A stretch of 64,000 nt of DNA from the UHGV virus genome UHGV-1343746. One strand, written 5' to 3'. Positions 10,808-11,838 of the stretch are shown piece by piece; position 1 is the stretch's first letter, and each line of letters opens with the position of its first letter. Under the pieces are notes generated by a model. It was not told the origin of the DNA. It was given only the letters and a program-made list of their open reading frames with translations, and searched no databases. A program made the translations under genes and the position numbers. Origin of the DNA: a virus.

Positions 10808-11395
10808 ATGAAACTGTTAAATATCAAAATCACTGGCACTCGTCCTTTCCTGAGCCATGCTGATACTCTGTCAGACCCATTAAATCCTCTGACAAAGTAT
10901 CACAAGTCTCTGTCTAGTAAACGTAAAAAGACTGACGAAGACTACGCTCTCTTAGCAGAGAGTCAACTGGTAACCTCTTGTTACTACGACGAGCAACTAG
11001 GTTTTGTTATGAACGGTGAGATGATTGAGGCTTGTATCAAGTCTGGTGCAAAACTCAACAAACTTGGTAAGGTAATTGACCGAGCCATTATGCTGACAGA
11101 TGTAGTCTTCCCAATGACTATTAAGAACTGTCCAGCAAACCCACAAGAACTAGCTAAGAACCAAGACTTTATCTATGCGAAGTCTGTTAAGATTGGCACA
11201 GCACGAGTTATGAGCTACCGTCCAATCTTCCGTGACTGGTCTGTAGAGTTTGGTTTGATGTTCGATGAAGAACAAATTACCAAAGAAGAACTCTTGATGG
11301 TTCTGGAAAATGCTGGCAACCTTTGTGGTGTAGGTGATTGGCGTCCACGCTTTGGTCGTTTTTCTGTAGAAGTTATTTCAGAAGGTAATGTTTAA
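10808..11395 (+). CDS. hypothetical protein bracketed by repeat units
   Basis: track ORF 10793..11395 starts with GTG; first ATG at 10808 has GTGGAG upstream. Confidence 0.5.
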
Positions 11396-11397
11396 TT

Positions 11398-11838
11398 ATG
11401 AATACAAAAGCATTAGCAGCAAAGTTCAGTTACGGTGATACTGTATCACACTCTGAGATGGACACCTTCTTAGGTATTGTGAAGCCGACTTATCAAGGTG
11501 ACATTGTTAAGTACGAAGATGAAATGAAAGCTTACGCACTTACACGCCTAAATCGACTTGAGAAGTTTATTGAGAAGCTTCTTAAAGAAGAGAAGATTTA
11601 TCTGGTCACTTCAATGGGTGTTGGTTATCGTGTGGTGGAACCTAAACATCAAGCAACTATTGCAAAACGTAAAATGTCTAGTAAGATTGGTCGTGCTTTA
11701 AAACAAGCCACTCAAGCGATTGAGAATGTGAACACTATGGCACTTAGTCATCAAGAACGTTCACGACTGATTGAACAGCAAAACCATTTAGCTGCCATGA
11801 AAGCTAACATTAACAAGCAACGTAGAAAACCTTTCTAA
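11398..11838 (+). CDS. hypothetical protein with basic C-terminal tail
   Basis: 146-aa ORF tightly coupled to upstream ORF; C-terminus KANINKQRRKPF. Confidence 0.5.
   Translation: MNTKALAAKFSYGDTVSHSEMDTFLGIVKPTYQGDIVKYEDEMKAYALTRLNRLEKFIEKLLKEEKIYLVTSMGVGYRVVEPKHQATIAKRKMSSKIGRALKQATQAIENVNTMALSHQERSRLIEQQNHLAAMKANINKQRRKPF

Follow-up and report, generated by a model that had tools for sequence, protein, structure and literature searches.

A phage gene pair set among GGYNN repeats is very probably a type II VIPR locus with guides that match E. coli satellites

What do two adjacent phage genes have to do with the pentanucleotide repeats that lie on both sides of them? This question is raised by a locus in a 64 kb stretch of phage DNA (hereafter the window), whose segment 10300-12300 is 99.6-99.7% identical in nucleotide sequence to Shigella phages Sf17, Sf18, and Sf19, which are Felix O1-like (Ounavirinae). 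When both strands of the window were scanned for GG at a period of 5, four GGYNN arrays were found, all on the plus strand, two before ORF1 (~10490-10559 and ~10633-10697) and two past ORF2 (~11902-11946 and ~12024-12073). No period-5 GG array was found outside the ORF1-ORF2 locus on either strand of the 64 kb, and chance was excluded because the rest of the window has none. A first-pass annotation of the same DNA had described ORF1 (10808-11395) and ORF2 (11398-11838) as bracketed by repeat units, and the scan bore this out, with two arrays on each side. Both ORFs are present on the plus strand, and only the length of 200 aa given for ORF1 needed revision. That length belongs to a GTG start at 10793, while the ATG at 10808 gives 195 aa and is the likely start, because GGAG lies 8 nt before it and the annotation of phage SUSP1 also has 195 aa. 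ORF2 encodes 146 aa with the basic C-terminal tail that had been described, ending in NKQRRKPF. The promoter and the terminator named in the annotation were also recovered: a putative sigma-70-like promoter, TTGACA-16-TATACT, matches 11/12 consensus positions at 10391-10418 (+), ahead of the upstream repeat pair, and a terminator-like hairpin lies just after ORF2 at 11850-11865 (+).

The two genes are neighboured by a DNA ligase gene and small phage ORFs. A 44-aa ORF at 10481-10615 (MMLGKVRFGWVWYGLVW...) was considered as a gene, that is, as a tract coding for pentapeptides, and was rejected as a G-rich-repeat artefact, since it lies wholly inside the first repeat tract and its tail. After the last repeat unit, a further hairpin occurs at 12114-12155 (AAGCTATAA…TTATAGCTT followed by a T-run); it overlaps a promoter-like TTGACA-17-TATTTT that would serve the next gene, 12196-12576, which encodes a secreted-looking 126-aa protein of phrog_4332. 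Elsewhere in the window, 24 tRNA genes are clustered on the minus strand at 40189-45351, as is typical of Felix O1-like phages.

A system with this architecture, VIPR (Viral Interference Programmable Repeat), was described in a 2026 bioRxiv preprint that is not yet peer reviewed (10.64898/2026.04.26.720920). In that report, Vipr is a small ancestral RAMP protein that binds vrRNAs made of GGY/NN repeats, each vrRNA comprising 9-16 YNNGG repeats and a 3' tail that is conserved and, in the SUSP1 clade, folds into a pseudoknot, and a vap accessory gene accompanies vipr (10.64898/2026.04.26.720920). The NN dinucleotides read double-stranded DNA with one base skipped per repeat, the skipped base typically falling at the wobble position, and the target is repressed at the level of transcription, no PAM being required (10.64898/2026.04.26.720920). 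SUSP1 is the model locus, where discrete vrRNAs of ~100 nt are expressed, Vipr co-purifies with repeat RNAs as guides, and Vap1 enhances the effect (10.64898/2026.04.26.720920). VIPR was also proposed to be older than CRISPR (10.64898/2026.04.26.720920).

Comparison with SUSP1 showed that ORF1 is identical to its Vipr at 193/195 residues (99%; gene at KT454805 28474-29061), and that ORF2 is identical to its Vap1 at 143/146 (98%). When our array caller was applied to SUSP1, it recovered the published layout of one upstream and three downstream arrays. We consider it very probable that the Felix O1-like (Ounavirinae) phage of the window carries a type II VIPR locus at 10391-12111, from the promoter through the tail of the fourth vrRNA, and that this locus is a near-identical sister of the SUSP1 one. 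The module is therefore already known, since the system had been published for a sister phage, whose guides differ, and it was recovered here independently from sequence. By analogy with SUSP1, given the 99% protein identity and the shared tails, the vrRNAs of the window would be expressed, form an RNP with Vipr, bind double-stranded DNA, and repress transcription; Vap1 would likewise enhance the effect, as it does in SUSP1.

The vipr gene (ORF1, 10808-11395) encodes a single-domain protein for which a fold search returned a Cas7-type RAMP, and not TRAP, CsrA, or Hfq. It agrees with the description of Vipr as a small RAMP of ~20 kDa that has a single RRM core together with a thumb and a G-rich loop. 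For the product of vap1 (ORF2, 11398-11838), the structural model was moderate (pLDDT 73), with long helices following the N-terminal part, and the fold search returned mostly generic helical hairpins and only a hint of PadR/AphA winged-helix regulators. A single-sequence search with ORF2 reached close relatives only, and the wider family was obtained by extracting the gene downstream of vipr from all loci and then running a profile search; this family carries an xVRGxGYRxV wing-like motif. Together, the model and the motif suggested that Vap1 is a probable winged-helix DNA-binding protein, the winged helix being predicted for the N-terminal part. Neither protein matched any model in Pfam, NCBIfam, or PADLOC, Cas models included, and PHROGs places ORF1 and ORF2 in phrog_4652 and phrog_5926, both listed as 'unknown function'.

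Alignment of the four repeat units revealed a common plan on the plus strand: a hairpin, then a GGTNN tract, then a 38-nt element with two interleaved stems, whose sequence varies by unit while the complementarity is kept. The guide tract of vrRNA1 (10490-10559) contains 14 GGYNN repeats, with NN = AA TC TC TG GT AT CT AT TG TG CT CC TT GA, and is followed by a 3' tail (10560-10597) that can form an H-type pseudoknot, GTAG/CTAC interleaved with GTCTCA/TGAGAC, and then a T-run. The tract of vrRNA2 (10633-10697) has 13 repeats, 3 of them degenerate (NN = TT TA AG AG CC TG CT AA CA TA AA GA AA), and its tail pseudoknot (10698-10735) pairs GTGG with CCAC and GGTAG with CTACC. Past vap1, vrRNA3 has 9 repeats at 11902-11946 (NN = TG TT CT TC GT AA GG TA AT) and a tail pseudoknot at 11947-11984 (GTAG/CTAC and TAATCG/CGATTA), and vrRNA4 has 10 repeats at 12024-12073 (NN = CG GT TC CA AA TG GA CA CG GC) and a tail pseudoknot at 12074-12111 (AAGG/CCTT and GGCAG/CTGCC). 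The pairing of the tails was examined in an ungapped alignment of ten distinct tails, with stem 1 at columns 3-6/17-20 and stem 2 at columns 8-13/30-35. In this alignment 97% of cells were paired and 8/10 pairs showed compensatory changes, values that come from only four independent paralogues and from the same tails from which the structure was derived; controls with slid partners gave 28-49% paired.

Hairpins with an invariant loop, GTCTTTRAARAGGGT, precede all four tracts, and three of the four are very stable. The leader hairpin directly 5' of vrRNA1 (10447-10488, conserved loop GTCTTTGAAAAGGGT) has a dG of -22.4 kcal/mol (z -6.1), the hairpin between vrRNA1 and vrRNA2 (10595-10635, loop GTCTTTAAAGAGGGT) a dG of -14.2 kcal/mol (z -3.6), and that between vrRNA3 and vrRNA4 (11981-12021, loop GTCTTTGAAAAGGGT) a dG of -17.7 kcal/mol (z -6.0). 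The copy before vrRNA3 (11866-11900), whose loop motif carries a 1-nt deletion, was placed by the four-unit alignment, its fold alone not being significant (z -0.8). A motif search of the 64 kb found exact copies of the loop motif at this locus only. In the preprint text a 3' tail is named, but no hairpin 5' of each tract is discussed (10.64898/2026.04.26.720920), and for this reason we suggest that the hairpin may act as a signal by which vrRNA 5' ends are processed or delimited. Its role could be likened to that of a Cas6 site, but one using a host RNase. Rfam, searched at gathering thresholds over the window and at E-values up to 10 over the locus, returned only tRNAs and noise.

The guide portion of these units turns over among close relatives. 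Five relatives from IMG/VR, with Vipr 97-99% identical, have near-identical tails and yet carry different NN strings and repeat numbers.

We then looked at the association of the genes with the repeats across 80 IMG/VR loci, in which the ORF1 homologues share 37-50% protein identity with ORF1, except for five close relatives, and the GC content ranges from 39 to 67%. The first-pass annotation had proposed a synteny check in relatives and had regarded homologues lacking flanking repeats as evidence against its reading. The opposite was found: same-strand GGYNN arrays adjoin the ORF1 homologue in 74/80 of these mostly distant loci, either up to ~0.8 kb before ORF1 or up to ~1 kb beyond it, a range that reaches just past the second gene. 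In the 80 loci, 191 arrays were on the gene strand vs 1 on the opposite strand, and a stricter caller gave 216 vs 2, with a median of 12 pentamers. Across the 216 arrays, pentamer position 1 was G in 96% and position 2 was G in 91%, position 3 was C in 54% and T in 32% (pyrimidine in 86%), and positions 4-5 were unbiased and near-uniform. Of the 74 loci, 30 had arrays solely upstream, 34 solely downstream, and 10 in both places. As 64/74 are thus one-sided, bracketing as such is not conserved, while adjacency and strand are.

An ORF2 homologue follows ORF1 in 83/84 loci. In four distant loci (Rhodococcus globerulus, a metagenomic phage, a Streptomyces-related contig, and a Xanthomonadaceae prophage), a gene of 156-178 aa comes directly after the ORF1 homologue and GGYNN arrays lie beside it in all four, the Streptomyces-related array being weak. 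GC-rich genomes have GGC in place of the GGT of the window phage. Judged from these comparisons, the gene-repeat linkage is ancient. In the Rhodococcus globerulus locus (L001), the vipr-vap pair is succeeded at 7117-7663 by five GGCNN arrays in tandem; they are separated by another conserved spacer (…TGGTGGTCCGGGATGGTCACAACGGCGGTTCGATTCCGCCGCC…), and its GGTTCGATTCC segment resembles a tRNA T-arm, which hints at a putative tRNA-like processing signal in that clade.

If the NN dinucleotides are guides, they should match DNA under the gapped register. Of the SUSP1-clade guides with identifiable targets, 18/20 were reported to match an E. coli satellite phage (10.64898/2026.04.26.720920). Because the baseplate protein of that satellite was given as 72% identical to the phage's (10.64898/2026.04.26.720920), we chose the window's baseplate gene (25446-26252, beside the tape-measure gene) as the query for a satellite search of complete E. 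coli genomes. Genes annotated 'phage baseplate protein' were matched in 473/5,426 genomes at 72-76% nucleotide identity. Seven regions were examined (L086-L092), each an island of 11-13 kb with a serine recombinase, a tape-measure gene, and a baseplate gene; an annotated HTH-domain gene was present in 4/7. The islands are inserted within yecE (DUF72), or at yciI/tonB, lafU/dinB, or ymdF/wrbA, and none of the seven has GGYNN arrays of its own.

The scan for guide targets covered these 7 of the 473 satellite-bearing genomes. The first satellite examined, L086, had neither target nor arrays, and targets emerged with the six further variants. With a skip of 1 nt, the guide of vrRNA1 (vr1) matched at 24/28 positions (86%) in a small ORF (L092 6720-6761), and vr2 matched at 23/26 (88%) at L091 5119-5157, a site shared with L087 and L090 that lies 84 nt upstream of the HTH gene and downstream of a promoter-like site. 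The serine recombinase gene was matched by vr3 at 18/18 (100%; L091 13738-13764, E. coli RM10809-3; decoded target nTGnTTnCTnTCnGTnAAnGGnTAnAT) and by vr4 at 17/20 (85%; L088 13811). Three of the four guides therefore match imperfectly (85-88%). Skip lengths of 0, 2, and 3 gave background scores only. Order-shuffled guides reached the observed scores 0, 0, 0, and 9 times per 1000 trials for vr1, vr2, vr3, and vr4, respectively, and an equal length of chromosomal flank gave best scores of 14-19. Within the window, no self-target reached 80% (best match 64-78%). Searches with exact full-length guide patterns gave no match for vr1 in viral_contigs and metagenome_contigs, or for vr2 in genome_contigs. 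The skipped base falls at codon position 3 for the vr1 and vr4 targets and at position 1 for the perfect vr3 target, which makes the vr3 site an exception to the wobble rule. The convergence of guides on the recombinase gene and on the sequence that lies before the HTH gene suggests that the phage specifically blocks excision and activation of the satellite, instead of silencing its genes across the board. That this holds and that the 5' hairpin also sets the vrRNA 5' ends is, as a joint reading, a tentative proposal that we think rather unlikely.

These results bear on how the repeats are to be understood. The first-pass annotation had offered two readings, a functional module of proteins and repeats, or acquisition of the cassette through the repeats, and only the former stood. 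Its proposal that the two proteins act on the repeats beside them, by binding or processing, was essentially correct, as shown by the 99% identity of ORF1 to a Vipr that co-purifies with repeat RNAs and by the linkage across the IMG/VR loci. The repeats go beyond mere protein-binding sites, however; they are guide RNAs for DNA targeting. The competing reading is that they are a protein-titrating or attenuator RNA of the TRAP or CsrB kind, in which a ring or filament of ORF1/ORF2 grips the GGU triplets and the NN positions are uninformative, the purpose being to regulate the cassette or else to tie up an RNA-binding protein of the host. A conserved triplet at regular spacing with variable spacers, in arrays that adjoin the genes and follow a promoter, is what such an RNA would look like. 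Yet the Cas7-type fold of ORF1 is not that of TRAP, CsrA, or Hfq, the NN positions, read with a 1-nt skip, score far better against satellite DNA than shuffled guides do, with one guide matching at every position, and reprogramming of NN only was reported to retarget repression (10.64898/2026.04.26.720920). We regard titration or attenuation, whichever of the two purposes it served, as very improbable. Two related ideas were dropped, a Shine-Dalgarno sponge, which fails because the GC-rich relatives use GGC, and a G-quadruplex or R-loop origin element.

Repeat-mediated acquisition, with the repeats as substrates or remnants of recombination that mobilised the two genes like a moron flanked by direct repeats, draws on the similar units on both sides of the cassette and on the varying position of the module among phages, where it lies beside a repressor in some and between the portal and terminase genes or close to a DNA ligase in others. 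It sits poorly with arrays that are mostly one-sided and that share the coding strand of the genes, with a GGY that is kept while NN is hypervariable between near-identical phages, with the covarying pseudoknot tail, and with the matches to foreign DNA under the decoding rule; in SUSP1, moreover, the arrays are expressed as discrete RNAs (10.64898/2026.04.26.720920). The chance that this reading is right appears minimal. A further proposal takes the module for an anti-CRISPR decoy, in which a phage Cas7 mimic and a repeat RNA poison host type I/III CRISPR complexes in the manner of Racrs. The Cas7-like fold and the phage location fit this, and Camara-Wilpert and colleagues reportedly described, in 2023, phage-encoded mimics of CRISPR repeats as RNA anti-CRISPRs (Racrs). 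The RNA, however, is unlike any CRISPR repeat and without a match in Rfam, the GGYNN scheme is common to hosts that have different CRISPR repeats (Rhodococcus, the Streptomyces-related contig, Xanthomonadaceae, and E. coli), and the guides match a satellite and not host cas loci, so that a decoy function is hardly credible.

For the VIPR reading, we propose the following mechanism. Four short vrRNAs would be transcribed, one pair ahead of the genes and one pair past them, each consisting of a tract of 9-14 GGYNN pentamers and a conserved pseudoknotted 3' tail. Vipr, the small Cas7-like RAMP, would assemble on the tract, the protein holding GGY and presenting NN for base pairing, and the NN would read double-stranded DNA in a gapped register of two paired bases and one skipped. 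The bound RNP would block transcription of the target, no nuclease being encoded, and Vap1, as a probable winged-helix DNA-binding protein, would boost the effect. The four guides would be aimed at the 11-13 kb E. coli satellite island, whose tape-measure and baseplate genes are related to the phage's own, with two sites in the serine recombinase gene and one in an early small ORF, the fourth lying upstream of the HTH gene. Since the guides point at an island with phage-related genes, the phage most likely silences a parasite that would otherwise hijack it.

VIPR is a recently reported way for RNA to read DNA, with a gapped code written on pentanucleotide repeats and one 20-kDa RAMP. The window adds to it a rediscovery from sequence alone, comprising the fold, the 74/80 linkage, and the covarying tail, and an independent check of the 1-nt skip rule with four guides, which may or may not be among the preprint's 41. 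All four guides point at one family of E. coli satellites. The decoded guide targets, the 2+2 arrangement of vrRNAs, the vr3 exception to the wobble rule, and the conserved 5' hairpin are also added. In practice, the 'hypothetical proteins' of phrog_4652 and phrog_5926 that occur in many phages, Felix O1-like ones included, ought to be annotated as vipr and vap1, and the 'intergenic' GGYNN tracts next to them as vrRNAs; no current model in Pfam, NCBIfam, PADLOC, or Rfam recognises any of these.

Among known systems, the close ones are the backbone proteins of class 1 CRISPR-Cas (the Cas7 family, with Csm3, Cmr4, Csf2, and Cas7d) and interference guided by crRNA, especially the nuclease-free silencing of type IV or CRISPRi-like systems. 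Vipr differs from these in being a single small protein with no second RRM, in a locus without Cas5, Cas6, Cas8, Cas10, Cas11, Cas1, or Cas2. A CRISPR crRNA pairs 5 bases and flips 1, whereas a VIPR guide is non-contiguous, 2/5 of the RNA bases reading 2/3 of the DNA bases, and VIPR works without a PAM (10.64898/2026.04.26.720920). The locus holds no CRISPR array, its inter-tract elements being 38-73 nt long and its 'spacers' being themselves GGYNN repeats, and no Rfam CRISPR direct-repeat family was found there. It likewise has no multi-subunit effector or cas1/cas2, with two genes only and no Cas match in Pfam, NCBIfam, or PADLOC. With TRAP, VIPR shares a conserved triplet (GAG/UAG in TRAP) with 2-nt spacers on single-stranded RNA, and the expected grip of a protein oligomer on it, but the protein folds are unrelated, the VIPR spacers carry DNA-targeting information, and there is no attenuator context. 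The nearest relative is the SUSP1 VIPR, from which the window differs in having two upstream and two downstream vrRNAs instead of one and three, in four guide sequences that are all unlike those of SUSP1, in belonging to a phage closest to Sf17, Sf18, and Sf19 and not to SUSP1, and in a conserved hairpin 5' of each tract that is absent from the preprint text. The two loci have in common the synteny of DNA ligase, vrRNA, vipr, vap1, and vrRNAs, the tail types including the pseudoknot, the repeat grammar of 9-16 GGY/NN, and the same class of target, a satellite of E. coli that carries tape-measure and baseplate genes.
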